From: Candidatus Omnitrophota bacterium
GTDB taxonomy: Bacteria > Omnitrophota > Gorgyraeia > Ghiorseimicrobiales > Ghiorseimicrobiaceae
Assembly (NCBI GenBank): GCA_030681595.1
Contig: JAUXSB010000061.1
Coordinates: forward strand, 5,392-69,391
Direction of reading: 5' to 3'
Length of the DNA stretch: 64,000 bases
Positions 1-18,280 of the stretch are shown here, in pieces (the first letter of the stretch is position 1; each line of letters begins with the position of its first letter). Below the pieces are notes generated by a model. The model worked only from the letters and a program-made list of their open reading frames with translations. It did no database searches and was not told the origin of the DNA. Position numbers and translations under genes: made by a program.

Positions 1-1898
1 TCTTCCTCACAAAGGATTGAGCATCCTTCCCCCTGCACCTGCACTGTGAACTGATTCTCTCCAATACGAATTATCTTTCGCTGAGATTCTTCCTGCTGTT
101 TTTGAGTTTTAACAGAAATATCAATTCCCTCAATAGACTCATCAACCTTAGAAGGCTTTGCCTTGCTGATAAATTCTTCACCGAAAAGCCTTGTGGCATT
201 AGTGTAGTCATATACCCTGAACATTGATTTTGAGCCTCTTGGCTCTCCTGTTCTTGTTCCTCTTCCAACCATCTGATAAAAACTTATGGGTGATTCTATG
301 TATCTGAAGAATACAACGTTATCGAGGTTAGGTATATCCACTCCTGTTGAAAGCAAATCAACAGTAGCAGCAATAAAATGGGAATTCTTTGAACCTCTGA
401 AATCAGGAATTAGCTTATCTGCCGAAGGCCTTAAATCAGGATTGCCTGTGCATTGAAAAGCATACATTTCTTTTGGTGAACGCTTATTATCCCTGCACCA
501 CTTCTCATAAACATTATTCAAGGCTATCATAACCTGATTGGCATGAGAATCCCTTGCGCAGAAAATTATTGTTTTCTGATGAGGGCCGCCTGTATCAAGA
601 AAATGCTGGAATAAATCCTCTGACATTGCCTTTACCCTGTCATCAAGCATCAGCTTCATCTCATAGTCTTTTGCAGTATATTTATCTTCAATATCATTCG
701 GATTAATCTTCTTGCCTGTAAATGGATCCGTTGCTGAACGTTTTTCAATATCTTCTTTGGTAATCTCTTTTTTGTCCAAGTCAACTAATCTTCTAACAAC
801 TTCGCAGGCAGCAAGATAACCGTCATCCTGGCCTGAGCCCATCGAGTATTCATAAACAGGCTTTCCAAAATAATCAAGATTATGTGAGGTAACCTCTTCG
901 TCTGCTTTTCTTCCCGGGGAATCTTTCTTCCCACCAACAACAATTCTTGGAGTAGCTGTTAACCCAACATGCACTGCATCGGGATTATCTCTCAGGATTA
1001 CACTCCATTTGCCCCATGCGCTTCTATGACACTCGTCTATGATGATATGGCTGAAGAAATTCTTAGGGTAATTTTCTTTCCAGAATTTTGGCTCATCGAA
1101 TTCCTCAGTAGTATTAAGGGTTTGATAAGTCGCAACGAGAACCTTGGCATTCCTTTGAGGGTCTTGGGTTGTAACTATCTGGGCATTATCGCCAAAGATG
1201 GCATGAAGCTTAGCTATACCCTGTGTCCTTAACTCATCCCTGTCACATACAAACAAAGCTCTCTTTAATTTCCCTGCCTGAGCAAGCTTATAGAGCAATT
1301 GCACTGCGATTATTGTCTTGCCTGTGCCCGTTGCAAGAGAAAGCAAAACTCTTTTATCACCTCCGGCTAATTTTTCCAAAGTAGCCCTGATAGCTGCATC
1401 CTGAAAATAATACCTTGCTGCTTCTCCACCCTTATATGGCATTAGCAATGGCTTCGCTGCTTCAGACTCGAGCTGGATATTCTTTATTTTTTCATATCTC
1501 TGCTTCAAATCATTTGGGGCGGGAAAGATGTTTAATCCCAAAGAATCCTTAATCTGCCCTGTATCTTCTGCATACTCACAATAGAGATTACCATTGGTTG
1601 AAAAAACAAAGGGAACATGAAACTTCTTCATATAGTCCCTGGCCTGTTGAATACCCAAAGAAGGCAATTTATCCTCCGCCTTCGCTTCAAGCAGAGCAAC
1701 CGGCAGGATTGATTTGCCCTCAACAAGTGGAATACAAAGGAGATAATCAGTCCTGCCTTTTCTCTTGCGAGGCCTGCCATCAATAATATCAACTCCACCG
1801 GGAGTTCTTTCTTCCCGAATTAGCGCTTCAACCCATCCTCTTTCATGCAAGGCTGGATTTATGAGCTCAATTCTTGTCTGTTTTTCATCTCTTGCCAT
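1..1898 (-). CDS. hsdR: Type I restriction enzyme R-subunit-like nuclease-helicase (HSDR_N PD-(D/E)xK domain + SF2 helicase); C-terminus runs off the left window edge
   Basis: Uninterrupted minus-strand frame from ATG at 1898 (AGGA RBS 5 nt upstream on minus strand) to position 1. It is absent from the ORF track only because it is edge-truncated. The N-terminus MARDEKQTRIELINPALHERGW carries the classic HsdR N-terminal motif, followed by D..EAK. SF2 motifs are present: ATGTGKT (I), IIIDECHRS (II), LTATP (III), QMVGRGTR (VI). The track ORF 71..268 is out of frame inside it. Confidence 0.6.
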   Translation of the reverse strand, partial: MARDEKQTRIELINPALHERGWVEALIREERTPGGVDIIDGRPRKRKGRTDYLLCIPLVEGKSILPVALLEAKAEDKLPSLGIQQARDYMKKFHVPFVFSTNGNLYCEYAEDTGQIKDSLGLNIFPAPNDLKQRYEKIKNIQLESEAAKPLLMPYKGGEAARYYFQDAAIRATLEKLAGGDKRVLLSLATGTGKTIIAVQLLYKLAQAGKLKRALFVCDRDELRTQGIAKLHAIFGDNAQIVTTQDPQRNAKVLVATYQTLNTTEEFDEPKFWKENYPKNFFSHIIIDECHRSAWGKWSVILRDNPDAVHVGLTATPRIVVGGKKDSPGRKADEEVTSHNLDYFGKPVYEYSMGSGQDDGYLAACEVVRRLVDLDKKEITKEDIEKRSATDPFTGKKINPNDIEDKYTAKDYEMKLMLDDRVKAMSEDLFQHFLDTGGPHQKTIIFCARDSHANQVMIALNNVYEKWCRDNKRSPKEMYAFQCTGNPDLRPSADKLIPDFRGSKNSHFIAATVDLLSTGVDIPNLDNVVFFRYIESPISFYQMVGRGTRTGEPRGSKSMFRVYDYTNATRLFGEEFISKAKPSKVDESIEGIDISVKTQKQQEESQRKIIRIGENQFTVQVQGEGCSILCEE

Positions 1899-1968
1899 GT
1901 TAGGAATCCTTATTTAGCTAAGAATTAGAGGACTTAATAATTTTTCTATATCTTTTCCAGCGGTTCGC

Positions 1969-3000
1969 TTAGAAAGAATCTTTTATCTCAAAATTTACTT
2001 TATAAAACTTCAATTTTATTAGACCATTAAGGGGTTCGACTGCATAAGACAAGCGCTCATCTGGCTCATTCACAATTATTATTCCTCTTACCTTTGTATT
2101 GAAATTCCTCTTAACCCATCCTACATATCTTAAGGTCTGACCGACAACCTTATCATTTTCTCTGCCTTTCTTTAACTCTACCACAACATGATTGCCTTGT
2201 TTATCTTTACACAACAAATCTATCTTTCCAACTTCTCTCGTATCATACTCTTTTCCAACCAAAGAAAATCCCTTTTCTAAAATAAAGATGTTCTCAGTAA
2301 GATAATCTCTTAAATCATTCTCGATTGATATTGAACCATAAGATTTCATGGCTTCTTCTGGACCTTCTTCTCCCTGAGCAAAAGCAAACCACAACAGATT
2401 ATTTACTAAATTATACTTCTCTAAGCCTAAAAGTTCTTTTATGGCTTGAAAAATAACACAATCTCTTAAATAATCTAATGTCCTTTCTAGTAATTCCTCT
2501 TTATCAGTAATATTAAAAATTTGTGTTGCATCTTTTAACGCGGCTTGATCCTGTTCAGAATTGATTTGGATTGCCTCTTTAGTCTGAGAGGTAACAAAGG
2601 GATATTTGCTGGGATCAGAAGAAACCAGAAATTGCGAGAGCGTCTGAATTCCGATTCCTTTGAGTCTAAAGAAATTATTTACTCTGCTTGGGAATGAATC
2701 AGTTCCATGAATTAAGTTTCTTAGTTCTTTGTTGAATTCTTCTATAGAGTTATTTTTATAAAGGAGATTTGTCAGATTTCTGTTTGCAGAGAAATGCTTC
2801 ATATAACCGAATAAGTCATCCAGCTTTTCAGGCGTTAAATCCTTTCCTTGCTTAAAATCCTCGCTATTCAAAATTGCTCTAGTCTGGATTTCCGCCTTCG
2901 CCTCTTCTTCATACCAATTTTTCGCTTCTTCTGAAGATAAGCTATTTTTCCACAATCTCAAATTCTCAATTTGTTCAGGGGTAAATTTAAATTCAGCCAT
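1969..3000 (-). CDS. NucS/DUF4263-like PD-(D/E)xK nuclease-domain protein with an unrecognised ~230-aa N-terminal region
   Basis: The C-terminal segment GKIDLLCKDKQGNHVVVELKKGRENDKVVGQTLRYVGWV matches the NucS/EndoMS-type and DUF4263 (Shedu-like) nuclease core (D..ELK..Q..Y). It is co-directional with hsdR-like, 70 nt apart. Confidence 0.5.
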   Translation of the reverse strand: MAEFKFTPEQIENLRLWKNSLSSEEAKNWYEEEAKAEIQTRAILNSEDFKQGKDLTPEKLDDLFGYMKHFSANRNLTNLLYKNNSIEEFNKELRNLIHGTDSFPSRVNNFFRLKGIGIQTLSQFLVSSDPSKYPFVTSQTKEAIQINSEQDQAALKDATQIFNITDKEELLERTLDYLRDCVIFQAIKELLGLEKYNLVNNLLWFAFAQGEEGPEEAMKSYGSISIENDLRDYLTENIFILEKGFSLVGKEYDTREVGKIDLLCKDKQGNHVVVELKKGRENDKVVGQTLRYVGWVKRNFNTKVRGIIIVNEPDERLSYAVEPLNGLIKLKFYKVNFEIKDSF

Positions 3001-3045
3001 GTTTTTTCCTCTTTTGTTTATGTGCAGATTGCCTTAATAATTTTT

Positions 3046-3186
3046 CTACTTGCCTAATATCCTCATCATAACAGTTCCGCAATCAGGGCATTTGCCTTTC
3101 ATTGCTTTCCTGCCATTTTTCAGGGTTACCTGTTCTTCATCCTTCATTTCTTTCTTTAATTTACATTTCAAACAGTATGCTTGCAT
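3046..3186 (-). CDS. Small zinc-ribbon protein (DUF5679-like), 46 aa, below the ORF-track size cut-off
   Basis: Minus-strand ORF MQAYCLKCKLKKEMKDEEQVTLKNGRKAMKGKCPDCGTVMMRILGK, with an AGGAG RBS 7 nt upstream of the ATG. It has two CxxC pairs. It lies between the NucS-like and Mrr-like genes on the same strand. Confidence 0.5.
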   Translation of the reverse strand: MQAYCLKCKLKKEMKDEEQVTLKNGRKAMKGKCPDCGTVMMRILGK

Positions 3187-3229
3187 TTTTTACTCCTTGC
3201 TAAGATTTAATAAAAATATTTACCTTATA

Positions 3230-4099
3230 TTATCTTTTTCCAAAGAATTTCATAAATAATCTTTCATTAAATATTTGTTTTCCATTCTTTTGAGAAAACC
3301 ATTCCCTAGTGTCTGAAGATTTGATTAAATCTTCAACGATTTGCTCACCAGTTTTTAAAATTATCCATTCTTGTTCAGCATAATTAACAGCGCGGCGAGT
3401 ATAACCAGAGGTCGTCATAAATATACATAAAATAGGACTCTTTACAGAAACAAACCAACTAGGCAACTTCTCAACTAAATTTTGATCGCCACGTTGCACG
3501 CTCAAATAATAGGTATGAAATGATCTTATTAAGATAGGAGAAATTTTACTTGAAAAATGTTTAACTTGACCAATAACCCTTATTTTAAAGTTGTCAGGTA
3601 AAATCCTAGTAGTAAGATACTTCCCAATATCAAAAAGTCCACAAAAATCAATACCTTCCTGATTTTTGGCTGTAAGCTGTATAGGATAGATACCACTTTG
3701 TTCTAATATATACTTACATAAAAACTCAAATTTTTGCCAAGATATTTTGTTGATCGCTTGGATTAATTCTTTTTTTTGTTTTCTTAACTCAGAAATCCGC
3801 AGATCTTCTTTGTGCTTTATGCTATAACTAATAAGCAAGTATTCGGGAAATTCATTAAACTCATAAGCAGGAGAAATCCCCTCTTTTTTACAGTCCTCTA
3901 TCCATTTACATATATAAAATTTGGTTTTTTTAAGAAGGACCTGATTTTCATCTATAAGTTGGAACTCACTTAGATTTGGAAAATGTTTTTTTAATTTATC
4001 ATAACTGTACTTTTCTAAGTCTATCTTATCGAACTTTGAATCTTTAATTTCCTTAAGAATTATCTTAGCGATTTTTGTTATCTCAGAATTAGAAAGCAT
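3230..4099 (-). CDS. Mrr-like (type IV restriction endonuclease catalytic domain) protein
   Basis: The C-terminal half WQKFEFLCKYILEQSGI..QEGIDFCGLFD..RVIGQVKHF fits the Mrr_cat pattern (GxDGGIDG ... QCKRY). Its start abuts the stop of the upstream ParB-like gene (4099/4102). Confidence 0.5.
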   Translation of the reverse strand: MLSNSEITKIAKIILKEIKDSKFDKIDLEKYSYDKLKKHFPNLSEFQLIDENQVLLKKTKFYICKWIEDCKKEGISPAYEFNEFPEYLLISYSIKHKEDLRISELRKQKKELIQAINKISWQKFEFLCKYILEQSGIYPIQLTAKNQEGIDFCGLFDIGKYLTTRILPDNFKIRVIGQVKHFSSKISPILIRSFHTYYLSVQRGDQNLVEKLPSWFVSVKSPILCIFMTTSGYTRRAVNYAEQEWIILKTGEQIVEDLIKSSDTREWFSQKNGKQIFNERLFMKFFGKR

Positions 4100-4101
4100 T
4101 T

Positions 4102-5250
4102 TTATTTAATATTTTTTAGTTGAACATTAAGAATTGTTATTAAATTTTCTATTAGTTTGATTATTTCTTCTTTCTGCTTTTTTCCCAGTTGAGTGTTTGC
4201 CAGTTTAATCTGTGGTATAGGTAAGGTGTTTATAACTTTTCCAGTCGACTTTAGGTATTCAATTAACTCAACAATATCTATTGGTTCTTTTCTTTCCTTC
4301 TCTCTAAAAATCTTTTCATGAAATTGCTCGATATCAAAATCTTCTTTTTCGATTTCTTTTTCAAAATCATCTAAAAGTTTCTTATTTTCTTGTATAACAA
4401 GATCGGCCAACAAATCACGAGTATTTTTAGAAACGGTTAATTTCGGTTCTTTTCCTTCTATAGTTGTTGTCCACGAAAGAAACTTTTTAAGATTTTTTTC
4501 ATTCTTGAATTTTCTCTTCTTATCATTCCATCCTAGCCATATCTGTAAGGTGGGTTTTTTAAAGATAATCTCATCGAAAAGCCCGAATTTTTCAGGATCT
4601 AATCTATCACCATAGTCCTCATCACTTCTCGATTGTTCGAATGCATAAAAAGAACGAAGAGATAGAGTAACCTCTGATCGTCCCATTCCACTGAATATAG
4701 CAGCAATCTCACGAACATCTTTTTTACTCTCTTTTTCAAAGTCCGCAAGGAATCTTGCGGTAGGGTATTTCTCCCAAGACTTAATACCTGGAGTGTGTCT
4801 AAAGCCTTGTATAATCCAAGCTATTTCTGGATTCTTTCCGTGGTAAACCAAAGCTTCTATTTTAATAATTCCATCGTATATATCTTTTGGGATATTAATT
4901 CTACCTTTTGTATGTGCTGATTGTAATGTTCTGAGTGCCGCGACTCTTCTATTGCCTTCTACAACGACAAATTGGTCAGTTCCAAAAGGCCTTAAAACTA
5001 TTCTGTCAACAACCCAAAAACCAGAAGTTTTCATGCTTTCCATTAAATCATTAATTCCCTGTTTTTGTAATTGTTGCAAACAATCCTGCTGTATAGCCAG
5101 CTCGGATATCCTAACATCTGGAATCTTTTCTTTTCCTGGCTTGTCAATTCTTGGATTATTGGGATCAAGAAAAATCTGGTCTAGTTTCACTTTTTGGGAG
5201 CCCATATTAGACATTTCAGCCCAAGCTTCTAGTTTTTTATACTTTGGCAT
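4102..5250 (-). CDS. ParB/Srx N-terminal nuclease-like domain protein with a coiled-coil C-terminus
   Basis: IVLRPFGTDQFVVVEGNRRVAALRTL resembles the ParB N-terminal (ParBc) arginine-finger motif GxRRxxA. The C-terminal 150 aa are Lys/Glu-rich. It sits in an operon with the neighbouring nuclease genes. Confidence 0.5.
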   Translation of the reverse strand: MPKYKKLEAWAEMSNMGSQKVKLDQIFLDPNNPRIDKPGKEKIPDVRISELAIQQDCLQQLQKQGINDLMESMKTSGFWVVDRIVLRPFGTDQFVVVEGNRRVAALRTLQSAHTKGRINIPKDIYDGIIKIEALVYHGKNPEIAWIIQGFRHTPGIKSWEKYPTARFLADFEKESKKDVREIAAIFSGMGRSEVTLSLRSFYAFEQSRSDEDYGDRLDPEKFGLFDEIIFKKPTLQIWLGWNDKKRKFKNEKNLKKFLSWTTTIEGKEPKLTVSKNTRDLLADLVIQENKKLLDDFEKEIEKEDFDIEQFHEKIFREKERKEPIDIVELIEYLKSTGKVINTLPIPQIKLANTQLGKKQKEEIIKLIENLITILNVQLKNIK

Positions 5251-5299
5251 GTTCTTCCTCCTTAGAAATTAGCGTTCTACCAACAAAATGAAAATCTCT

Positions 5300-6469
5300 T
5301 TATAAACTTGCTGTTGACTTCTTATTATTTAATTTTTTGTCATATTTATAAACTTTATGCATTCCCCTTTTAAATTCATCGGCATTTTTTCCAAACATTT
5401 TAAGAAAGACTTTTCTATTTTTCCTGATTACACCTCTTGAATAATAAAATGTTGTAATTAATTTAATACCTCGCAATAATATGCTATTCCATTGGGGAGA
5501 GATAATATGTTTTTGGATACTATTTATAGGGCGATATCTCATAGGGAAAATATCAACTCCAAGTTTATTTAATTCATTAATTCGATGATAAAAGAATTCT
5601 GGAGTGTCATATGCCTCTTCTGAATTAAAAATAACATAAACCATTATATCTTTCCCACTATATTTTTTTGCAAGTTTTATCGCATTTTGAATATATCCCT
5701 CTTGTGATGGATTATCAAAAGCAAATCTTAATGGGTCAATTTTCGTTTGGGAAAGAATTTTAGCCTTTTCTTCATCAAAAAGTCTACAATCTATACCTTG
5801 ATTAAAATCAAATGGTTTTCCTATCTTCTTTAATTTTTCAATATCTTTATAAAAATTTGGAGAAGCCAACCAATTATTATCCCAAAAAATAATTTTTTTA
5901 GAATTTGGATTTATATCTTTTTCCCAATTTTTTCTCACAAAGAATTTTGGTTCAAGTAATCGAACAACACAAAATTTACATTTTCTTATACACCCCCTTG
6001 TTGTATATGTTATTGAAAAGGGGAAAGATGGTAGAAAAGAGTAATCAGGACTACATCCTTCAACTTTATCAAAAAGACCAACATGTGGAATTATCCCCGT
6101 TTCTCTTTTTATTAAGTCTGGTAAAAGTGTTGCTAATATACCCCCTACTTTAACTTCAGCATTTGGATATCTACTTTGATAATCTTTTATAGATTTTATT
6201 GCTGCTTGAAAATGATAAGTAAATAGAGTTGTTATATAAATTATATCATATTGCTCTTTAAGTTTTGGTGGTTGATAACCAAAATAATCTTGAGGTGCAT
6301 TATCTTTTATATAATCAACTTCATCTCCTTTATTTTTATGCCAGGTTGAAATTTTCATTAATGCCAATGAAGGATATGGATTCTCATAACCGGGTTCAAC
6401 AAGCAATATTTGTTTATTCATAATTAATCTATAGACCCCATAATATTTAAAGATTCCGCTTTTAACCAA
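5300..6469 (-). CDS. Class B (B12-binding domain) radical SAM protein
   Basis: The N-terminal KQILLVEPGYENPYPSLALMKI is typical of a B12-binding Rossmann domain, followed by TTRGCIRKCKFCVV (CxxxCxxC). The likely true start is the internal Met at about 6421 (MNKQILL). Confidence 0.6.
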   Translation of the reverse strand: MVKSGIFKYYGVYRLIMNKQILLVEPGYENPYPSLALMKISTWHKNKGDEVDYIKDNAPQDYFGYQPPKLKEQYDIIYITTLFTYHFQAAIKSIKDYQSRYPNAEVKVGGILATLLPDLIKRETGIIPHVGLFDKVEGCSPDYSFLPSFPFSITYTTRGCIRKCKFCVVRLLEPKFFVRKNWEKDINPNSKKIIFWDNNWLASPNFYKDIEKLKKIGKPFDFNQGIDCRLFDEEKAKILSQTKIDPLRFAFDNPSQEGYIQNAIKLAKKYSGKDIMVYVIFNSEEAYDTPEFFYHRINELNKLGVDIFPMRYRPINSIQKHIISPQWNSILLRGIKLITTFYYSRGVIRKNRKVFLKMFGKNADEFKRGMHKVYKYDKKLNNKKSTASL

Positions 6470-6623
6470 GGAGATTTTTTAGTTAGTTTGGACTTTTTAT
6501 ACAAGAGCTATTTTATACACAAAGCCTATATTTCCCTCTTCTCCAATACAACCTTTTGAGTTTTATTAAATTTTCTATCTATTTGTCCTCGCCCTGACAA
6601 ACTCCTCCAAATCCTCTATCTAT

Positions 6624-7931
6624 CTACAACTTCTTGCCTCTCCTATCTTCCGTAAGCACGCTTATCCTTACAACCCTGCTGTCCTTGAAATATACAAAAA
6701 TTCCCGCTTCCGGAAGCTTATACCACCAGTATTCTAAAATTTTCTTATTTCCCCCGCTAGGTTTTTTAACTGCCGGCTCGCCTAAAACTTCAGCCACTTC
6801 TTCCTTGCCTTTGCCTTTTAGCTTTTGGCTTAACGCTTCTTCATTATAGATTAAGCCTTGATCTAACTCACTTTTCTCTAAATAAATGTTGCTTCGAAAA
6901 TTATCTGTATCCCTATCAGGCCAGAGCAAAACCATTACAGGCAGATGATCAGAAGCATATTTTCCGTAAAGCCATATCTGCCTATTATCGCCCTTTAATA
7001 TCCTTGGAATTTTAATGTCTTGCTGAAAGCTTAAGTCTTCTTTCCATGCCTGATGAACTTGTGCTGACTCCGGAATAATATCTTCACCGCTATACTCTAC
7101 CTGATACCATATTGTATCATACTGGCTATTGGATAACCTACCTTTTGGCTTATTAAGAGTTGTTACATCACTTGAGGTCAATAGATGTTTCATGCCCAGC
7201 AGACCCTTTAAATCATCCCATTCCTTCTTATCAACATTTGTATTAAAATCACCCATAAGGAAAATATCATTCTGATTTGGATCTAAATCCTGAACAGTCT
7301 TATAAACGATGGCAAGCCTCTTTATTTCATCTTTCCGCCATTTTGCAGCAGGAGCAGCCGCATGAATTGTAATAAGCGTAAAATCCAAATTTCCATTTCT
7401 TACCTTGAATGAAGCAATAAATGGCTCTCTGTCAAACTGCCTTTCCTGATCTTTTAAATCTTGCATGGAATTTTTGACCTCATCCCATAAATTGGCTGAA
7501 TCTGTAATCAAATCAATCTTTGACTTCCTGAAGATAAAAGCGTAATACTCAAAGGTATTGAGTGCCTTGCTTTTCTCTGCGTTTGCTGTTCCATTTGGTT
7601 CTCGGCTTATAACATAATCCCAATCATCGCCAAGATAAAAAACTATTTTCTTTAATGCCTCTATGCCGACATTCCCAAGAGGATCAGTCTTACTCGCGCC
7701 TGTATTCATCACCTCTTGAATCGCCACGATGTCATAATTCTTAAGAATCTCCGCGGCATTTTTTGATTGGTATTCATTGGCTTTGCCCAATTTTTCTATG
7801 TTGAATGTGCCCAAGCGGATTTGATTGGCATGAGAGGGCTCTACAATACCGGCAAAGGCATACTGAACGTAGAATATAAAGGTTAAAACTAGTAAAAATA
7901 CTATATTATTAAGTTTTCTTTTGGCTGTCAT
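6624..7931 (-). CDS. Secreted endonuclease/exonuclease/phosphatase (EEP, DNase I-like) family protein
   Basis: An N-terminal signal peptide is followed by RLGTFNIEKLG...YDIVAIQEV, the EEP hallmark. It overlaps the upstream gene by 23 nt, indicating translational coupling. Confidence 0.6.
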   Translation of the reverse strand: MTAKRKLNNIVFLLVLTFIFYVQYAFAGIVEPSHANQIRLGTFNIEKLGKANEYQSKNAAEILKNYDIVAIQEVMNTGASKTDPLGNVGIEALKKIVFYLGDDWDYVISREPNGTANAEKSKALNTFEYYAFIFRKSKIDLITDSANLWDEVKNSMQDLKDQERQFDREPFIASFKVRNGNLDFTLITIHAAAPAAKWRKDEIKRLAIVYKTVQDLDPNQNDIFLMGDFNTNVDKKEWDDLKGLLGMKHLLTSSDVTTLNKPKGRLSNSQYDTIWYQVEYSGEDIIPESAQVHQAWKEDLSFQQDIKIPRILKGDNRQIWLYGKYASDHLPVMVLLWPDRDTDNFRSNIYLEKSELDQGLIYNEEALSQKLKGKGKEEVAEVLGEPAVKKPSGGNKKILEYWWYKLPEAGIFVYFKDSRVVRISVLTEDRRGKKL

Positions 7932-8733
7932 CTTCTTTCTTTTTTATGGTTAGGGGTATGCTTTTAAATAATCCGATAAAGAACAATATAATCCCCCCTA
8001 CTCCCGCCACGAATAAAATAAAAAGAGCAATTAACAATATCGCGACTACCAGGAGAATTAAAAAGAATAACATTGCAGTAACAAAGTATAAAAACTGAAA
8101 GAAAGCTACCTTAATAGAATGAATAAACCTATTTTCTTTGTAAGGCAATTCAACTGTTGTTACTGTATCAAATAAAAGCTTATTGTTAAAATCTACCGGC
8201 ATAACTTTATATGGCTCTCTTTCAAAGCAATACACTCCGGCTACAAGCAAGCCCGTGCATACCAACTCAGAACAAAAGTAAGCATCTCTCAAATTAAAAC
8301 ACCTGCCGAGAAAAGCATCGCCCCAGATGAAATGAATTTGTGGAGGGGTAAGATTATAGAACAAAAAATATAAAAGCGCCCTGAAATCATATCCCTTACT
8401 AACTGAATTCTTGCAGAAGTCTATGGTTTTTTGAAGGATTAATTGAGATGCATTCTTATGCCGTAATATAAGCAACTCAAAATCACCCTTAAGATAAGAT
8501 TCTTTAAAATCTCTTTTTACTATGCCACCGGGGAAAGCCTCGACAACTTGGCCATCGCCAATATAAAGAGCAGCATGCGTCCAATGCCTTTCCTTATAAC
8601 CTCTCTTAAAAAAATTGGCTAACTTTATTGGCAATGATCCCCATCTAATCCCTCTGCCATTAGTAAGAATAATATCGCCTGGAATTAATTTACTAATGAC
8701 TAGATTATTCACTGCAACCTCCTGATTAAACAA
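7909..8733 (-). CDS. YiiX/DUF830-like permuted papain-fold (NlpC/P60 superfamily) hydrolase with a C-terminal TM helix
   Basis: HWTHAALYIGDGQVVEA and a downstream CSELV Cys motif; the C-terminus has a hydrophobic helix. Confidence 0.45.
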   Translation of the reverse strand: MFNQEVAVNNLVISKLIPGDIILTNGRGIRWGSLPIKLANFFKRGYKERHWTHAALYIGDGQVVEAFPGGIVKRDFKESYLKGDFELLILRHKNASQLILQKTIDFCKNSVSKGYDFRALLYFLFYNLTPPQIHFIWGDAFLGRCFNLRDAYFCSELVCTGLLVAGVYCFEREPYKVMPVDFNNKLLFDTVTTVELPYKENRFIHSIKVAFFQFLYFVTAMLFFLILLVVAILLIALFILFVAGVGGIILFFIGLFKSIPLTIKKKEDDSQKKT

Positions 8734-8851
8734 AAAACCCTCGCCTTGTGAGCGAAGGTTTTAATTATTTTAACGTGGCAGTTCCCCCTTCGAAACGTAC
8801 CATAACTGGATTATTAACTCGCTTATACATCCAAAAGAGGAAATATCATAA

Positions 8852-9502
8852 CTAAAACAGCCATTTATTTTCTCGCTCATCAAAATAATAAACTACTTGT
8901 TTTTCATTATAACGCAGTTCAGAATAACTCTCTATTTTGTGCTCTTTATTATTAATATCCTGCCATGTAACTGTTAACCATAACTTAAAAGGGTTTTCTC
9001 TGCTTTTAGCAATTGCTTCAATACCATTAGGAATATCTGGAGACCATTTAACAATCGCAGTTTCGGGATAGAACATATTAAAAATTAAACCGCGTTGCTT
9101 AGCTATTACATCCCATGCTTGAGAATCTACGTGTCTTCCAGCACCATCATCTATTTCGAATTTAACATGGATATTCTTCGATAATTTCTTATTTTTTATT
9201 TTGACCAAAGCAACTATCAATGCTTTTCTTTGTCCTTCTACTTGCGGAGGATTAGGTATATAGGGCACAAAAGCGAGAGGTTTAATAGAGAGAATGGAAG
9301 TTTTGTCTGAGAGAACTTTCAGTATATTATTATACTTCTCTCCAACTTTCAAATACGATTTATTTTTGACAAAGTTATATAAGTCTGTAACAAGTAAAGT
9401 AAAAATAGTTAAACCAGCCAAAGATAATAAAAAAATAAATCTTTTTTTGAATCTCTTTTTTCTCGTAAGACTCTCTTTGGCCTTGGATGGGGCTTTAGAC
9501 AT
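8852..9502 (-). CDS. Hypothetical membrane-anchored protein
   Basis: A complete ORF with one N-terminal TM segment, in the same operon orientation as the neighbours; no recognisable motif. Confidence 0.35.
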   Translation of the reverse strand: MSKAPSKAKESLTRKKRFKKRFIFLLSLAGLTIFTLLVTDLYNFVKNKSYLKVGEKYNNILKVLSDKTSILSIKPLAFVPYIPNPPQVEGQRKALIVALVKIKNKKLSKNIHVKFEIDDGAGRHVDSQAWDVIAKQRGLIFNMFYPETAIVKWSPDIPNGIEAIAKSRENPFKLWLTVTWQDINNKEHKIESYSELRYNEKQVVYYFDERENKWLF

Positions 9503-9507
9503 TTAAG

Positions 9508-10617
9508 TTATTTTAGCTTATTGATAATCTTTTGATTTGCTGAACTCTGTTGATACTCTTTCATCCTTGCATAGCAAATCGACCAGTCAAAAGTATTGTA
9601 TAGGTCATTAAATAAATTATTAGCCCAATTCTTATATCTAACAGAAGAGGGGTTCCAAGCTGTCCATCTGCTGAAGGTTGCCTTGCAATTTGTTACTAAA
9701 GCAAGATTGCCATAGTCATTTCCCCAAAAATATAACTCATTAAAATCTTTTTCTTCAGTATTTAATCCGAGAAAATATGCTACCTGCCCCAAACCTACAG
9801 TGTATGATTGGTAGTTTATTTTAATTCTAATGTCAAAGAAAAATCTCTTATAAAATCTGTATTCGGCGCTGTTGTTATACGTAGAATAATAAATCTTTGT
9901 ACCTTTAGGCATAGCAAGAGCCCTAAATATATTTAAATCATTAAAAAACATATTCTGTTTAAGAGAAATTGGCAATTTATCTTTCTCATATCTTGAAATA
10001 TCATTTTTAACGTTCTCTATTTCTATAAGATGATATTCGCCCATCGTTCCTGAGGGAACCTCTTTTTGAGTTCCGGTTACATGCCAAATATGTCCATAAA
10101 ACATAGAGAGATGACCAAGAATAGCAATAGCTTGAATATCTAAAAGTGGTTTTACTTCTTGAGGCATATTAAAAATAACATCTGTTTTTGAATCCAGAGA
10201 TCTTCTTAAGTAATTGCCAAACACTCCACTCTGTAATCGATAATACTGCCCCAACCCCGGTTTGTCAGGAAAGAACAAAAAGCCATCCTTTACTCTAATC
10301 TTTTTATCTTCATTATTTTTATTATCATTAAAATCTGATTCTTTATGTTCTATAAAATATACTGAAGTTATAGCTCTTTCTAATGTTTCTTCTTTAGTTA
10401 CATAAAATAACGCTCCGATTATAACTCCCGCAATAATTATCGTGGCCTCTTGTATTTTTGTTGAACTTCTATTTATGTACAGAAGCCATAATAAAAAATA
10501 TCCAAGTACTAACAAGCAAATCGGCATTATCTTTGACATAAAACAGCTCCTTTTCTTTGCCCATATTATACCCCTTTTAGTGGCAAATTCTAACCTTTTT
10601 CTTGCCCCGCAAAACAC
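9508..10617 (-). CDS. Hypothetical membrane protein
   Basis: A complete ORF with N-terminal TM helices. The likely start is the internal Met (MSKIMPICLL, about 10539). No recognisable catalytic motif. Confidence 0.35.
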   Translation of the reverse strand: MFCGARKRLEFATKRGIIWAKKRSCFMSKIMPICLLVLGYFLLWLLYINRSSTKIQEATIIIAGVIIGALFYVTKEETLERAITSVYFIEHKESDFNDNKNNEDKKIRVKDGFLFFPDKPGLGQYYRLQSGVFGNYLRRSLDSKTDVIFNMPQEVKPLLDIQAIAILGHLSMFYGHIWHVTGTQKEVPSGTMGEYHLIEIENVKNDISRYEKDKLPISLKQNMFFNDLNIFRALAMPKGTKIYYSTYNNSAEYRFYKRFFFDIRIKINYQSYTVGLGQVAYFLGLNTEEKDFNELYFWGNDYGNLALVTNCKATFSRWTAWNPSSVRYKNWANNLFNDLYNTFDWSICYARMKEYQQSSANQKIINKLK

Positions 10618-10880
10618 CTTAACAATCTCTTCAATTCCTGCGCGCTCAGCCTATCTGCCTCTCTTAGCCCGCACTCATGCCTCAGCAACAGATAAAACCT
10701 TATTATTGCCTTCGTCTCTTCAATCAACTTCCTATGCCTTCTATTCCGGAACCATGTAATTAGGCTAATCATCTTGCCACCTCCTACTATAATTGACGTA
10801 AGAAGTGGCAAAATCTAACAAATATTTTTATGGACATGACATTTTAGAAGCTTATAATATAAGATATTATGAGGTGAAAA

Positions 10881-11801
10881 ATGAGCGCTAAAAAAGCAAG
10901 AGACCTAAAAATACAAGTAGCGGAAGGTATTAAGGTATTAGAAGCATCTGTGACTGTCGTAAAGGCAGCGGATAATGTTGCAGAAATAAAAGCAGGGGAT
11001 TCTTTGGATCAAAAAATCAACACAGCCATGCCACTAACACCAGAGTTAATTGAGAACATGGCTAAAAAAGTCAAAGATTTATTAAACAAACAGTCCTCTG
11101 CTGTAGAAGCTTCTGGAGACTCACAGTTTGAAGGCTTCATCGCCCAAGGAATAGAAGCAGGACTTATTATTAGCGCAACAACAGGTAGCGCTATATCGCT
11201 AAATAAAAGCTTTTTAGTTGGACAGCAGAGTAAAGCGATAATTATAAATAACTTTAAGGATATTAATATTTATCAAGGAAACAAAAGCTATAAAGATCAA
11301 CCTGTAATCACTGAAGAAAGTATAAGAAAAATTACTCTTGCTCAACTTTTTAAACAAATAGAAAATTTAACATTAGGAGCATTGGGGTCAATCATTGTTA
11401 TTTTAGTTGTAATTATTACACTATCATTTAAAGCTGGCTATCATTATAGAGAGATTACTCAATCTTCAACAATAATTAAACAAACACCATCTCTTGAACA
11501 GCTAAACAGCTATCAAATATCACTTCTCAAAGAAATTTACAAATATCAGAAAATAACCGAGGTTAATAAAGTCATTATAGATAGAGTGGGATTTATTTTT
11601 GATGAGTCAACAAAGAAAAACACATCGATCAATGTTGCTGTTAATGTATTGGGTAATCGTGCAGATCAAACTCGATTTGAAGAGCTGATAATATCTATCC
11701 CTGAAGTTTTTCTAAAAAGCTTAACAGAAACAAGATGGGGTAGCCCATATGTTTTAACTATTACAGAAGAAACGCGTAAGCTTTTAGATAAGAATCTCTG
11801 A
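10881..11801 (+). CDS. Hypothetical protein with a central TM helix
   Basis: A complete ORF with a GAGGTG RBS before the ATG at 10881. It has a single hydrophobic segment LGALGSIIVILVVIITL. Confidence 0.35.
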   Translation: MSAKKARDLKIQVAEGIKVLEASVTVVKAADNVAEIKAGDSLDQKINTAMPLTPELIENMAKKVKDLLNKQSSAVEASGDSQFEGFIAQGIEAGLIISATTGSAISLNKSFLVGQQSKAIIINNFKDINIYQGNKSYKDQPVITEESIRKITLAQLFKQIENLTLGALGSIIVILVVIITLSFKAGYHYREITQSSTIIKQTPSLEQLNSYQISLLKEIYKYQKITEVNKVIIDRVGFIFDESTKKNTSINVAVNVLGNRADQTRFEELIISIPEVFLKSLTETRWGSPYVLTITEETRKLLDKNL

Positions 11802-12040
11802 AATCATTTTAACTATTTTTAAGAAATTCCCTTAACCCTTGTAAATCCTTCTTTAAAGCCGTATCTAATACCTCGCTTAAAATCTGCCTTATAAATATAT
11901 TTCAGAATAAATTTGACCATATTGCCTCAATTATACCACTTCCATTTCGAAATTGTAAGGATTTAGGGAGTGGCGAACTCTAACGGAAATATTTTAAGAA
12001 ATCGAAAGAAAGGAACATACCTAACTTCAACGACTAATGA

Positions 12041-13201
12041 TCAATTATGTTCGGTGTTCCCCATTTCACTAAGAACGCGCGGTAGCTGGCGGTATGACCC
12101 TACCTTGAGCATGGAAGTTATAAGCAATGGGAGGTGAGGATTTCGTTTTTTTGCTTGCCTCAGGTATTCATGGGTACGCTTGTCGACAACAACGGCATCC
12201 AGATACGGCATCAATGATGTGATATATTCGTCATTGAGATCGCTCCCGCTTGCTCTAATTGCTTTTCTGCGAGACCTGCGAATCTCATATATGATTTCCT
12301 CTGAAGGTAATCTATGACTCTTAAGTCTCGGCCATATAGATTCAATTTCAAGACCAAGTTGTCTTGTAGAAATAGCCACTTGTTGACGCCGAGCCGCCAT
12401 ATCTCTAAACTCACCTAAAGTAATACCCTCAGGAAGATCCTTAAGCGTATATCCGAATTGCTTAGCGAAGGCTTCATAGGTATTCAGACTGCTTTTTGAT
12501 ATTTCTGTAATATTTGAAAATATATCGTTACAAAAATCACGTGCAACTGCTTGATGATCTAACAACCTCTTGTCACCTCGTGTGACAAGTTCATTCTTAA
12601 GCGTTGATACTTCTCTCTGATATGCCAGCTTCTCTTCTCCCGATGAGAGGGAAAGTTTATCTTTAAGGACAGACAGCGGCGCATTATCGTTAACATCATG
12701 GCGCGCATGTAAAATTGATGCTACCTCCTGTTGCTTTTTGCCTAAACCTAAAGCTGTCATGTCTTGCCGAAGTTCACGCCACATTTTTAATGTCGGGATG
12801 TCAGAAGGAGCTCCAAAACGCAACAAGCAGACCCTTGTAGCTGAAAATAAATTCTCAACAGTGGCATCGCATTCTGCTGAAAGATAAACCTTTATTTCCG
12901 CTGCTAGCACGTCAACCACTGAACCGATGTGATTCGAACCATCAGCTTTCCATATCCACGCAACATGCGGGAGATTCAAAATAAACCGCATTCGACTCTC
13001 GGCAATGGTTTCTTCGGGATGTCTTATCAACTCCTCAAAATGATACCAGCTAATAACTAGAATCCAATTCTCTGATAGAATTTGATTTAATACTCTACTG
13101 GCTATCTCTCGGCGAGCTGCAACCTGGGAATAAGCATCTTCTGCCCACTTACCAAGAATTGAAGAGTCAATTGCTATAAACTTAGGTTTACTAAGAGACA
13201 T
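12041..13201 (-). CDS. Hypothetical protein (possible PIN-like N-terminus), noticeably more GC-rich than the adjacent island genes
   Basis: A 386-aa complete ORF. The N-terminal KFIAIDSSILGKW resembles a PIN first-Asp motif, but the call is weak. An RHH gene lies upstream on the same strand. Confidence 0.35.
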   Translation of the reverse strand: MSLSKPKFIAIDSSILGKWAEDAYSQVAARREIASRVLNQILSENWILVISWYHFEELIRHPEETIAESRMRFILNLPHVAWIWKADGSNHIGSVVDVLAAEIKVYLSAECDATVENLFSATRVCLLRFGAPSDIPTLKMWRELRQDMTALGLGKKQQEVASILHARHDVNDNAPLSVLKDKLSLSSGEEKLAYQREVSTLKNELVTRGDKRLLDHQAVARDFCNDIFSNITEISKSSLNTYEAFAKQFGYTLKDLPEGITLGEFRDMAARRQQVAISTRQLGLEIESIWPRLKSHRLPSEEIIYEIRRSRRKAIRASGSDLNDEYITSLMPYLDAVVVDKRTHEYLRQAKKRNPHLPLLITSMLKVGSYRQLPRVLSEMGNTEHN

Positions 13202-13332
13202 GTAAGTTAATTATTGTAATTTTGGCTTTATTTTACCACTTGTAACATCAAACTCAAGGATTTCATTACCTCACAACAAACTCCAGGTATGGACAGTCAA
13301 GGGTCGCATCTCTTCCATGAGCCGTTACCAAA

Positions 13333-13758
13333 CTAAACTTCAAGATACCCCTCAGCCGCCTCCCTCGCCAATTCACTTATCTTCCTGCCAGTCTTCTCTG
13401 CTAGCTCCCTTAATTTTCTGTCCTGTTCTTTCGTAATCGTTCTAGAGAATAATTTAAGTCCTATAGGGGAAATCTTCCTCAGCGGCTCGTAAGGCAGCCC
13501 TTTCTTTTCTATATCCTTGAAATAGGCATCAATGATCTTTCTTAATGCCGCGGATTCTGTTGTATTCAGTTTCTTAGCCAAATTATTGAGTTTCTTGGCT
13601 AAATCAGGGGTTAAGCCGACGTAAACAGTTGTGTAATTTCTTCTGTTGAAGTTTGTCTTAACCAGTTGTTTTTCATGGGGTAACGAAGTTTGGAAATGAA
13701 GCTGAAGGCATTTTCGTGTATTGACAAGGTAAGATATGGGCGGTGCCGGTCCTGACAA
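13333..13758 (-). CDS. Ribbon-helix-helix (CopG/Arc-like) DNA-binding protein with tandem RHH-like segments
   Basis: TTVYVGLTPDLAKKLNNLAKKLNTTESAALRKIIDAYF and ITKEQDRKLRELAEKTGRKISELAREAAEGYLE both look like RHH beta-strand-helix-helix units. The annotated N-terminus overlaps the comEC remnant frame, so the true start is uncertain. Confidence 0.45.
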   Translation of the reverse strand: MSGPAPPISYLVNTRKCLQLHFQTSLPHEKQLVKTNFNRRNYTTVYVGLTPDLAKKLNNLAKKLNTTESAALRKIIDAYFKDIEKKGLPYEPLRKISPIGLKLFSRTITKEQDRKLRELAEKTGRKISELAREAAEGYLEV

Positions 13759-14527
13759 ATACTTCTAAAATCCCTTTAGGCAAACTCGACCTATCCCCTA
13801 ATAACATTGTTGATAAAACCGCCGCGTAGCTTTTAGGCATATTAGCGTAAAAACCCGCCTGTATCTTTTGCTTAAACCTTAAGGCAATTTCTTTAATAGG
13901 GCTTGCTTTATGCCGGGCGATTACTTCAAAGCGGTTGTCCTTTTTTACATTTAACACGCCATATATGCCTTGGCGCGCTAAATAGCGGCGATAATTAAAG
14001 TTGCCTTTCCCGCTAAAATTATACGGGCTAAAAAAATTCCCTTCTAAGATTAATTCATCTCCGTAAGATACTGGATGCCCGCTTGCCTCGCCAGCGCTTT
14101 GTGGCGGGTCAAAAAGCTGAACTAAAATTTTTCCCCTCGCTGTTGCTTTTTGCTCCCCAAACCCTATCTCCGACAAACGTAATATGAACCTAACTCTTTC
14201 CCCTTTAAGTTGCGGCTCATTCTCAATTATTCCTGTCGCTAAAACTTTATCCTGCCAAAAAAGTGATTTGTAATTGCTGATGTGGTTTTTCGGCAAAGCC
14301 TGACAGCACGATAAATATGCGGCGCCTAAAAAGAAAACCAACCCCAGTAAATTTATGTCAAAGGCTTCGTCATTTTTTAAAAACAGGCAAACGAAAAATA
14401 AAAATACGCTGAGGCAATAACAAATAAAAAACGGGATACTGCCAAATTGCGCCGCCAATATCCCTAAAATAAAACTGATTACAGCCGCCGGAAGGACAAA
14501 GATTATTTTTTTATTTTGATTACTCAA
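13673..14527 (-). pseudogene. comEC: comEC N-terminal fragment (DUF4131 region) truncated within the competence-domain motif
   Basis: AAVLSTMLLGDRSSLPKGILEVFVRTGTAHIL matches the ComEC LGDRSGL...RTGTAHLLAISGLH region. The frame ends 18 codons later without the competence TM domain or the metallo-beta-lactamase domain. It overlaps the comEA start by 8 nt. Confidence 0.5.
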
Positions 14528-14891
14528 GAATAAGAAATGCTTTTATTTTTTCTATTTTCTTCTCGCTTATGCCTTTGATATTTTTTAACTGGTTTATCTC
14601 GGTGAATTTACCGTTTTTTATACGGTAATCGATAATCGCCTGCGCGGTTTTTGGCCCGATAAGCGGCAATTCAGCCAACTGTTCTTTATCCGCGGTATTA
14701 ATATTGACTTTGAGGGGTTTATTAAATGATGGGGTAGCGTAAATTTCGCCTGCCTTGGGCATTACCTTAAACAAATAACTTATGCCGATGCCGACAAGTG
14801 CCGCAAAGGTAACCGCCAAAATGACATTCTTTTCCTGACGGGTGAGGTTAAGCTGGAGCATATATTTAAATAACCAATGGCCAATTACCAA
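14520..14891 (-). CDS. comEA: ComEA-like helix-hairpin-helix DNA-binding competence protein
   Basis: An N-terminal TM helix is followed by INTADKEQLAELPLIGPKTAQAIIDYRIKNGKF..INQLKNIKGISEKKIEKI (tandem HhH). Confidence 0.7.
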   Translation of the reverse strand: MVIGHWLFKYMLQLNLTRQEKNVILAVTFAALVGIGISYLFKVMPKAGEIYATPSFNKPLKVNINTADKEQLAELPLIGPKTAQAIIDYRIKNGKFTEINQLKNIKGISEKKIEKIKAFLILE

Positions 14892-14927
14892 ATCCCAATG
14901 AATAGGAAATTACGAAATTTATTAAGA

Positions 14928-17930: not shown

Positions 17931-18280
17931 AAAAAACGCCGACAAAGGCGACATTATTTACTATCACCCTTATCTAACTTCCGGCCCTCTCTTTCAAGGC
18001 ATGTTAAGGAATTACCTCATCGCCTCCTCGCATCCTTACCTTACTAGGGCCTACCTTTATCGGCTACTTATAGTATAACACAGATTTTACCCTTTTTCAA
18101 GGGGAGGCACCCGACGAGAAATTTAGCGTAAGGTAAATATGGTACACGGGAAACAGTCAACGCCCTATAATGGTGAATGCCGAATTACACTAATTCGGCA
18201 TTCATAAAACCTTTCATTGTGGTGGCGCCGAAATACATTGTTTCGACATCCACTTCTAATTTCATTAAAGAAATTAGAAG

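Follow-up and report, generated by a model that had tools for sequence, protein, structure and literature searches.

How does a gene for DNA uptake come to break off within a conserved region, and what is the DNA that has taken the place of its second half? The question is raised by the comEC gene in a stretch of 64,000 nucleotides (positions 5,392 to 69,391 of contig JAUXSB010000061.1, assembly GCA_030681595.1), here called the window, from a metagenome-assembled genome of Candidatus Omnitrophota. An original prediction, made from the letters of the window alone, had suggested that an integrative element or island is inserted in comEC and that its other end lies past the left edge of the window. 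The analysis described here leads to the same answer in a more specific form: comEC very probably harbours an integrative element that inserts at a specific site, measures at least 32 kb and has as its integrase a large serine recombinase (LSR) that uses an attP site within its own gene.

The Broken comEC Gene

The truncated comEC open reading frame (ORF) occupies positions 13673 to 14527 of the minus strand and encodes 284 amino acids (aa), with DUF4131 as its sole domain (Pfam, E = 2.6e-27). The product matches exactly the NCBI protein ComEC/Rec2, the record of which is on a 133,703-bp contig. Its closest relatives, P0002 to P0005 and P0007 (82, 64, 65, 63 and 57% identity, respectively), are 471 to 479 aa long and contain both DUF4131 and the Competence domain. 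None of them has a metallo-beta-lactamase domain, and the gene in the window therefore lacks no more than the Competence domain, of about 215 aa. It had been predicted that a ribbon-helix-helix (RHH) gene and a 386-aa gene take the place of the competence and metallo-beta-lactamase domains; this is correct for the two genes and for the Competence domain, but not for a domain that the relatives never had. That the frame stops abruptly within a conserved region is borne out, as similarity to intact ComEC runs to ...RTGTAHIL (aa 266) and ends at 13730-13740.

Two parts can be distinguished in the truncated ORF. The 5' part is that of the host gene (13738 to 14527, minus strand) and comprises codons 1 to about 263, with DUF4131 and the first membrane segments; it ends in the conserved motif R-T-G-T-A-H and has 82% identity with aa 1-269 of P0002, which is an intact ComEC. 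The remainder (13673 to 13733, minus strand) is element DNA, read out of frame as a tail of 18 codons and a stop, and no function is expected of it. Neither a second piece of comEC nor a 3' part nor an intact copy was found in the window by tblastn with intact ComEC as the query. A six-frame reading of positions 1 to 2100 also revealed no comEC; the gene of a type I restriction R subunit leaves the window at this edge. No recombinase was found anywhere in the window, as had been noticed before.

Upstream of comEC lie comEA (123 aa, HHH_3) and leuS (803 aa), together at 14520 to 17339 of the minus strand, and the three genes probably constitute one operon. The order leuS-comEA-comEC is also present in the intact locus L003, and in L004, L059, L075 and L040. 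Integration linked to a tRNA gene was considered and ruled out, the only tRNAs of the window, at 18280 and 18915, being located outside the element.

The Missing Half

A scan of a genome collection with the C-terminal half of ComEC yielded 18 loci, 16 of which also match the N-terminal parts of the full-length query. The two others, L007 and L008, contain only aa ~251-471 of ComEC, and in each of them an LSR gene on the same strand ends at the junction. A protein search with the C-terminal half led to a 161-aa fragment, 94% identical to P0002, on contig L024, which derives from the same sequencing run (SRR13727519) as the Logan copy of the window. The order of genes on L024 is cargo, a 533-aa LSR, comEC aa 252-472 (94% identical to P0002), a GerE-like gene, ArsR, Fer4 and DsrE. 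The last four are also found downstream of intact comEC in L003 and L004, and a search of the window for the genes that flank intact comEC downstream gave none.

The intact locus L003 aligns with both contigs: nt 1-1456 with the window (85% identity) and nt 1435-2711 with L024, in three pieces of 82-96% identity. When the comEC halves are joined in silico, as by excision, an uninterrupted, in-frame ComEC of 481 aa is obtained, and the DNA to the left of about 13733 is therefore the element, as had been proposed. The window contains its left junction (attL) and about 13.7 kb of its interior; attR, the LSR and the 3' half of comEC lie outside, on L024. With 19.1 kb on the window side and 13.3 kb on the L024 side, the element measures at least 32 kb.

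Part of the window side comes from Logan contig L005, which was reached via an exact match of the ParB-like protein of the window. For 15,250 bp its sequence does not differ from that of the window, and it runs 5.4 kb further to the left (hsdS, hsdM and small genes); this extension is still element interior and reaches neither the LSR nor the C-terminal part of comEC. Exact-protein look-ups of the NucS-like and Mrr-like genes found none on record, nor is there a record of a C-terminal ComEC protein from the NCBI contig of the window.

The att Sites

The sites that can be compared are attB in L003 (GGCACCGCCCATATTTTAGCTATAAGCGG), attL on the minus strand of the window (GGCACCGCCCATATCTTACCTTGTCAATACACG) and attR in L024 (CGGCAAGACCCATATTTTAGCTATAAGCGG). 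The only stretch common to attL and attR is the 7-bp crossover core CCCATAT, located in attL at 13734 to 13740 (minus strand), where it spans the Ala-His-Ile codons of ComEC. Direct att repeats had been anticipated near 13700-13760, and a shared core does exist there, but it is only 7 bp long and long direct repeats are absent. A short att core is usual for serine recombinases.

The element arm of attL (13700 to 13733, minus strand), which is the right arm of attP (CTTACCTTGTCAATACACG...), mirrors the TTGAC..GG.AAGA of the left arm of attP in L024. Assembled in silico, attP shows by eye a partial dyad symmetry, TTGAC..GG.AAGA..[CA]..TCTT.CC..GTCAA, and closely resembles the native attP sequences of L026 and L037. 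In L024, L025, L007 and L008, the LSR adjoins attR. A weak sigma-70-like match, TTGTCA-16-TATCTT (9/12), straddles attL at 13731-13758 (minus strand); it carries no weight, because a promoter and terminator scan around the junction gave nothing above chance, with no more sites than in shuffled sequence.

The Split Recombinase Gene

The most interesting feature of this element is its split LSR-RHH gene. The LSR of L024 (8238 to 9839) bears the motif ALYARVSTEEQ and consists of Resolvase, Recombinase and Zn_ribbon_recom domains (PF00239, 5.9e-36; PF07508, 2e-14; PF13408, 2.5e-12), and all recognised domains are kept in the ORF on the attR side. The protein is about 531-533 aa long in L024, L025 and L007. 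The LSR ORF passes through the core in one phase at each of the four attR loci and stops 2 to 4 codons into comEC, and the RHH ORF at attL is in the same phase. Joining L024 and the window at the core in silico creates one ORF of 665 aa, in which the LSR is followed by two RHH units. A native ORF of this kind, with 738 aa and the domains Resolvase, Recombinase, Zn_ribbon_recom, RHH_1 and RHH_3, is present on the metagenome contig L037. In L026 (560-1078, P0145) and L076 (~360-681), the last ~25 recombinase codons are in frame with RHH and no recombinase gene is found upstream; these are decayed attP forms, in which the RHH module persists without the LSR. The LSR ORF is continuous with RHH in the attP state, and only in that state. 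These reading frames show that attP lies inside the recombinase gene and that integration separates the LSR, which retains a normal length, from its DNA-binding RHH module. The module is left behind at attL, where comEA and the truncated comEC immediately precede it.

In the window, the tandem RHH module (Pfam RHH_3/RHH_1) comprises 134 aa at 13333 to 13737 of the minus strand. The gene was called as an ORF from 13333 to 13758, and the TTG at 13758, in comEC-derived sequence, is its only in-frame start. Codon statistics were derived from 29 distinct sequences of the RHH family. In codons 1 to 8 after the core, the entropy is 0.56, 0.60 and 0.66 at codon positions 1, 2 and 3; this nearly equal conservation of the three positions indicates a constraint at the level of the DNA, as expected for a recombinase-binding arm. 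The next 28 codons, the linker, display a coding signature in the RHH frame (0.82, 0.49 and 1.13). Within the first 36 codons, stops occur in none of the 29 sequences in the RHH frame, against 24 and 29 of them in the two other frames. In 17 of the 29, including the window, the stretch from the junction to the first RHH unit has no ATG, GTG or TTG. On account of the fusion ORFs and the codon statistics, the best reading of the predicted RHH gene is that of a 3' part detached from the LSR gene.

An AlphaFold2 model of the module (pLDDT 75) consists of a disordered linker followed by two beta-alpha-alpha units. Its best fold matches in the PDB are single-chain Arc, AvtR and, with TM 0.53-0.75, chains of 102-120 residues from the F-plasmid relaxosome, which are presumably TraY. 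The sequence of the module resembles that of no solved structure, and no relative of it was found in IMG/VR, INPHARED or PLSDB.

Recurrence in Other Hosts

The break is not confined to the window. In another metagenome (L001), a ComEC fragment of 274 aa with 55% identity (P0006) breaks off at the very codon found in the window, followed by an RHH gene with 54% identity and then by cargo unlike that of the window. The two breaks are separate events at one site, since the nearest relatives, P0002 and P0007, are both intact. A scan of metagenomes with an alignment of the RHH family gave 56 loci, with 48 junctions that could be examined. The N-terminal part of ComEC is directly upstream in 39 of the 48, and all of these break between ...GGCACnnnnC and AT(A/G)TC, in the His codon of S/T-G-T-x-H; the other junctions are mostly of the attP type or too short to judge. 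The N-terminal parts of ComEC in these hosts are 19-75% identical to the references. Such agreement to the nucleotide exceeds chance by far, and site-specific insertion into a DNA-uptake gene recurs across independent hosts. Short ComEC N-terminal proteins followed by RHH in other genomes, which could have spoken for a stand-alone protein without any element, turn out to be this same element junction, and the nearest relatives of each broken copy are intact.

On the other side of the element, the 3' half of comEC in L025, L007 and L008 is preceded by a homologous LSR that crosses the core in the same phase. The LSRs beside these 3' halves have 52-70% mutual identity, and the cargo otherwise differs. 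Upstream of the LSR in L037 and L008, a TraD/TrwB-like ATPase and Replic_Relax (6.7e-24 and 2.8e-19) are found; the only such candidate in the window's own element is a 650-aa P-loop ATPase without a clear family (L024). L007 (2300-4442) and L037 (74-895 and 6431-9147) carry E1-like (ThiF), JAB/MPN and possible E2/ubiquitin-like genes, recognised from motifs by eye, and this set of E1/JAB genes is reminiscent of defence cassettes for ubiquitin-like conjugation.

The junction of the broken N-terminal part and RHH is directly followed by a full-length comEC at 10 or more loci (L027-L031, L044, L045, L050, L059 and L075), and in L040 (13010-14539) and L074 (3071-5659) it follows about 2.6 kb downstream of the junction. 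A remnant of the C-terminal part (aa 377-469) is located in L059 behind the full copy and ahead of the host genes bamD, lptE and holA. The broken N-terminal part and the adjacent full comEC are 32-39% identical in L059-type loci and ~70% in L040 and L074. Among four such hosts, identity amounts to 72-80% for leuS, 70-87% for the full comEC, 76-86% for RHH and 43-53% for the broken N-terminal part. The loci have the look of remnants that are old and were inherited vertically. Elements with a replacement comEC are a possible origin, and sister elements that bring a full copy just after RHH may leave the host its DNA uptake; the window's element, as far as it is known, contains no replacement comEC. 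Horizontal mobility of the full-length comEC beside RHH was considered and rejected as unsupported, as this gene diverges at about the rate of leuS among those hosts.

The 152-kb contig L053 has two junctions of an N-terminal comEC part with RHH, 8 kb apart (1198-2620 and 9853-11068) and separated by trehalose-type and other housekeeping-like genes, which points to integration events, nested or serial, in a second copy of comEC. The RHH family also occurs in high-GC hosts (P0152, L065, L067, L070 and L074). In P0152 (JGI, 394 aa), an indel fuses the N-terminal part of ComEC in frame with the RHH module, and L074 retains the Omnitrophota-like order comEC-bamD-lptE-holA.

Proposed Mechanism

On the basis of these findings, it is possible to outline how the element may behave. 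The LSR would recombine attP, situated in the 3' coding region of its gene, with an attB that coincides with the ComEC His codon in the conserved motif (S/T)-G-T-x-H-(I/L)-L-A-I-S-G. The ComEC channel domain would thereby be lost and DNA uptake abolished, unless another copy exists, and the block of uptake could in turn protect the element from removal by transformation. An earlier paper on the conflict between mobile elements and transformation reportedly took the same view, namely that transformation can remove elements. Excision by the LSR from attL and attR would restore comEC exactly, as it does in silico. LSRs integrate by recombining attP with attB, and excision from attL and attR normally requires a directionality factor. 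It could be speculated that the RHH module, fused or detached, is a built-in regulator of recombinase expression or directionality, and that after integration the detached module is perhaps driven by the comEA-comEC promoter. The cargo, mostly nucleases and restriction- or defence-type genes, would in part be a later, AT-rich acquisition.

It is conceivable, though somewhat doubtful, that the two arrangements constitute a switch of expression or direction, in which the free element encodes an LSR with an RHH tail and the integrated element a tail-less LSR, with RHH placed under comEA-comEC transcription. Excision and the repair of comEC might then be coupled to the induction of competence.

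Several points weigh against the main account, that of an LSR-borne element in comEC. The two Logan contigs, that of the window side and L024, are not physically joined, and their connection is drawn from the shared sample, the matching identity to L003, the restored reading frames and the absence from the window of the downstream genes. No attB or attP form of the window's own element was found in the sample. The native fusion is drawn from one contig (L037), two remnants and an in-silico join; among the called proteins of a library of 1.84 billion representatives, no full-length LSR-RHH fusion was found. Apart from two long proteins with marginal, partial matches, the search of this library gave nothing but RHH-family proteins of 37-158 aa, and a query spanning the junction retrieved stand-alone RHH proteins, an LSR C-terminal fragment (P0151) and the ComEC-RHH fusion P0152. 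Finally, any role of the RHH module is entirely a matter of inference, as is the assignment of the crossover dinucleotide, either CA or AT within CCCATAT.

Alternative Explanations

The alternative that survives best is compatible with an LSR-borne element and would refine it: the element may have been domesticated as an intervening sequence or regulatory switch that is excised on cue to rebuild comEC, the trigger of which might be comEA-comEC transcription driving the detached RHH module. Parallels for such a switch are skin in sigK, SPbeta in spsM and the comK prophage of Listeria. The two comEC halves are indeed still open and rejoin in frame to 481 aa, and the RHH module immediately follows comEA and the N-terminal part of comEC on the same strand. 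The lower identity to P0002 of the N-terminal half (82%) than of the C-terminal half (94%) corresponds to the normal difference in rate among intact relatives, so that comEC shows no sign of decay. However, neither of the excised forms of the window's element was detected in the sample, the scans for promoters and terminators remained at chance level, and the element itself provides no canonical in-frame start for RHH, the TTG at 13758 being derived from comEC. Elsewhere, moreover, the broken N-terminal part decays (43-53% identity, as against 72-80% for leuS), and reversibility is for that reason not generally maintained. Domestication of this kind is unlikely.

It is very improbable that the element is a prophage with a serine integrase, similar to the streptococcal Phi1207.3 that targets comEC. 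Serine-recombinase prophages in comEC are documented (PMC4260502), the LSR matches the PHROG integrase family phrog_95 (1.8e-110), an 87-aa MerR/excisionase-like helix-turn-helix gene is located near it in L024, and the middle of the element lies outside the known sequence. Yet no capsid, portal, tail or lysis match was obtained for eight L024 ORFs and two window proteins searched against PHROGs or for ten L024 ORFs searched against Pfam. Matches of the packaging type are weak only, those of the 650-aa P-loop ATPase to phrog_2666 (large terminase, 6.8e-06) and of the 87-aa helix-turn-helix protein to small-terminase families. The RHH module has no relatives in IMG/VR or INPHARED, no phage LSR in INPHARED exceeds 29% identity with the LSR of the element, and the sister elements carry their TraD/TrwB-like coupling ATPase and Replic_Relax, which are genes of the plasmid or integrative and conjugative element type.

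That no mobile element is involved, and that comEC has suffered a deletion or rearrangement or is a stand-alone N-terminal paralog beside unrelated accessory genes, is hardly credible: pairs of a short N-terminal ComEC and RHH do recur in many genomes, with a full-length comEC directly downstream or about 2.6 kb further on at the loci listed above, but the N-terminal half keeps its leuS-comEA synteny and the C-terminal half, in the same sample, its host downstream synteny beside an LSR, dozens of divergent hosts have the break at precisely the same nucleotide, and the sequence on the element side is homologous across hosts and joins the LSR tail in attP forms.

Cargo and Composition

The genes to the left of comEC had been described as accessory and compositionally different throughout. 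Accessory genes they are, including nucleases, an EEP nuclease and a YiiX-like gene (a weak match), but only positions 1969 to 11801 are AT-rich. The GC content of this block is 0.332, compared with 0.416 for RHH and the 386-aa gene (12041-13733), 0.414 for hsdR (1-1898) and 0.409 for the host. As the backbone of the element is host-like in GC content, the AT-rich block represents a cargo sub-region and not the element itself. The 386-aa gene (12041 to 13201, minus strand; GC 0.424, host-like) has no match in Pfam, PHROG, PADLOC or NCBIfam and is not conserved in the other elements examined.

The AT-rich block encodes proteins of 306, 369 and 216 aa without family assignment, the first of them on the plus strand, opposite to its neighbours; a YaeF/YiiX-like protein (274 aa, the weak match); an EEP/MnuA-like nuclease (435 aa; MnuA, 3.6e-20); a B12-binding/radical-SAM-like protein (389 aa); a ParB-N-like protein (382 aa; PDC-M38A, 1.3e-46, PADLOC); an Mrr-like nuclease (289 aa); a DUF5679 protein (46 aa, ~3046-3186); and a NucS-C-like nuclease (343 aa). 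These matches come from Pfam, PADLOC and NCBIfam, and the one to PDC-S02 has a value of 1e-19. The ParB-N-like (PDC-M38A; PD-Lambda-5_A), B12-binding/radical-SAM-like, Mrr-like, DUF5679 and NucS-C-like (PDC-S02/S11) genes form a compact low-GC cluster at 1969-6469, which is a candidate defence system of uncharacterised type.

At the left edge, and in the interior of the element, lies the 5' part of hsdR (3 to 1898, minus strand; 632 of 797 aa; ResIII, Helicase_C and HSDR_N, Pfam), and hsdS and hsdM come after it beyond the window. Downstream of hsdM, about 3.4-4.0 kb to the left of the window (L005, 18688-19231), are two adjacent paralogous genes of ~80 codons with 37% mutual identity, the products of which look, by eye, like ribbon-helix-helix/CopG-like proteins.

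Comparison with Known Systems

The element has the features of LSR-borne elements: resolvase, Recombinase and zinc-ribbon domains, a recombinase at the edge beside a short att site, and exact restoration of the target in silico. Its general kind is already known, because insertion into comEC by serine-recombinase elements has been documented in streptococci, where Phi1207.3/Tn1207.1 insert site-specifically in this gene (PMC4260502; also reviewed in PMC12378983). The streptococcal set that targets comEC/celB comprises Phi1207.3 (Tn1207.3), Phi10394.4 and Tn1207.1, together with the 'mega' island. There, as here, insertion takes place within the comEC coding sequence, recombinases of the serine family are used and the DNA-uptake channel is inactivated. 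Those elements, however, are found in another phylum, Phi1207.3 is a prophage that has three resolvases, small or large, and neither an RHH module nor an attP-in-gene architecture has been described for them. Mobile elements in competence genes are regarded as weapons directed at transformation, a process by which they could otherwise be deleted (PMC12378983). With the element described here, the targeting of competence genes extends to the Omnitrophota, a phylum of uncultured bacteria from groundwater and sediment, and one comEC codon is targeted in dozens of divergent hosts. The LSR clade is distant from those characterised (at most 29% identity) and both attB and attP are predictable, which makes it a candidate recombinase for genome engineering with a naturally broad target.

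Other elements also interrupt genes that are reconstituted on excision, reportedly including skin with SpoIVCA in sigK of Bacillus subtilis, SPbeta with SprA in spsM, the A118-like prophage in comK of Listeria, and the fdxN element with XisF in Anabaena. These have in common with the present element an LSR at the edge, a short att site, a target in the interior of a conserved gene and exact restoration of the ORF, which here is in silico. They differ in having a separate small gene for a recombination directionality factor and an unsplit recombinase ORF, and in that regulated excision has been demonstrated for them. Tandem RHH units within a single chain exist as well in DNA-binding or DNA-bending accessory proteins such as the TraY type of the F plasmid, single-chain Arc and AvtR; in the present case, the module is fused to a recombinase in one state.

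Literature searches revealed nothing relevant on LSRs that bear RHH domains or have their attP within the gene. A parallel for the latter is provided by the 'suicidal' SSV-type tyrosine integrases, described as exclusive to archaea; their att site lies inside the integrase gene, and its partitioning has been discussed as a built-in control of directionality (PMC8371274). In both cases, attP is within the integrase ORF and the gene is partitioned by integration, as seen here in the L024 join, L037 and L026. The enzyme here is a serine recombinase, however, and integration of SSV splits the catalytic protein, while here only a C-terminal tandem-RHH appendage is removed. The element therefore has one feature in common with the 'suicidal' integrase systems without being a member of them. 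An attP within the ORF, with the tandem-RHH module fused or detached according to the state, offers a testable mechanism for directionality or autoregulation, and if true, it would give the archaeal 'suicidal' integrases a counterpart among the serine recombinases of bacteria.

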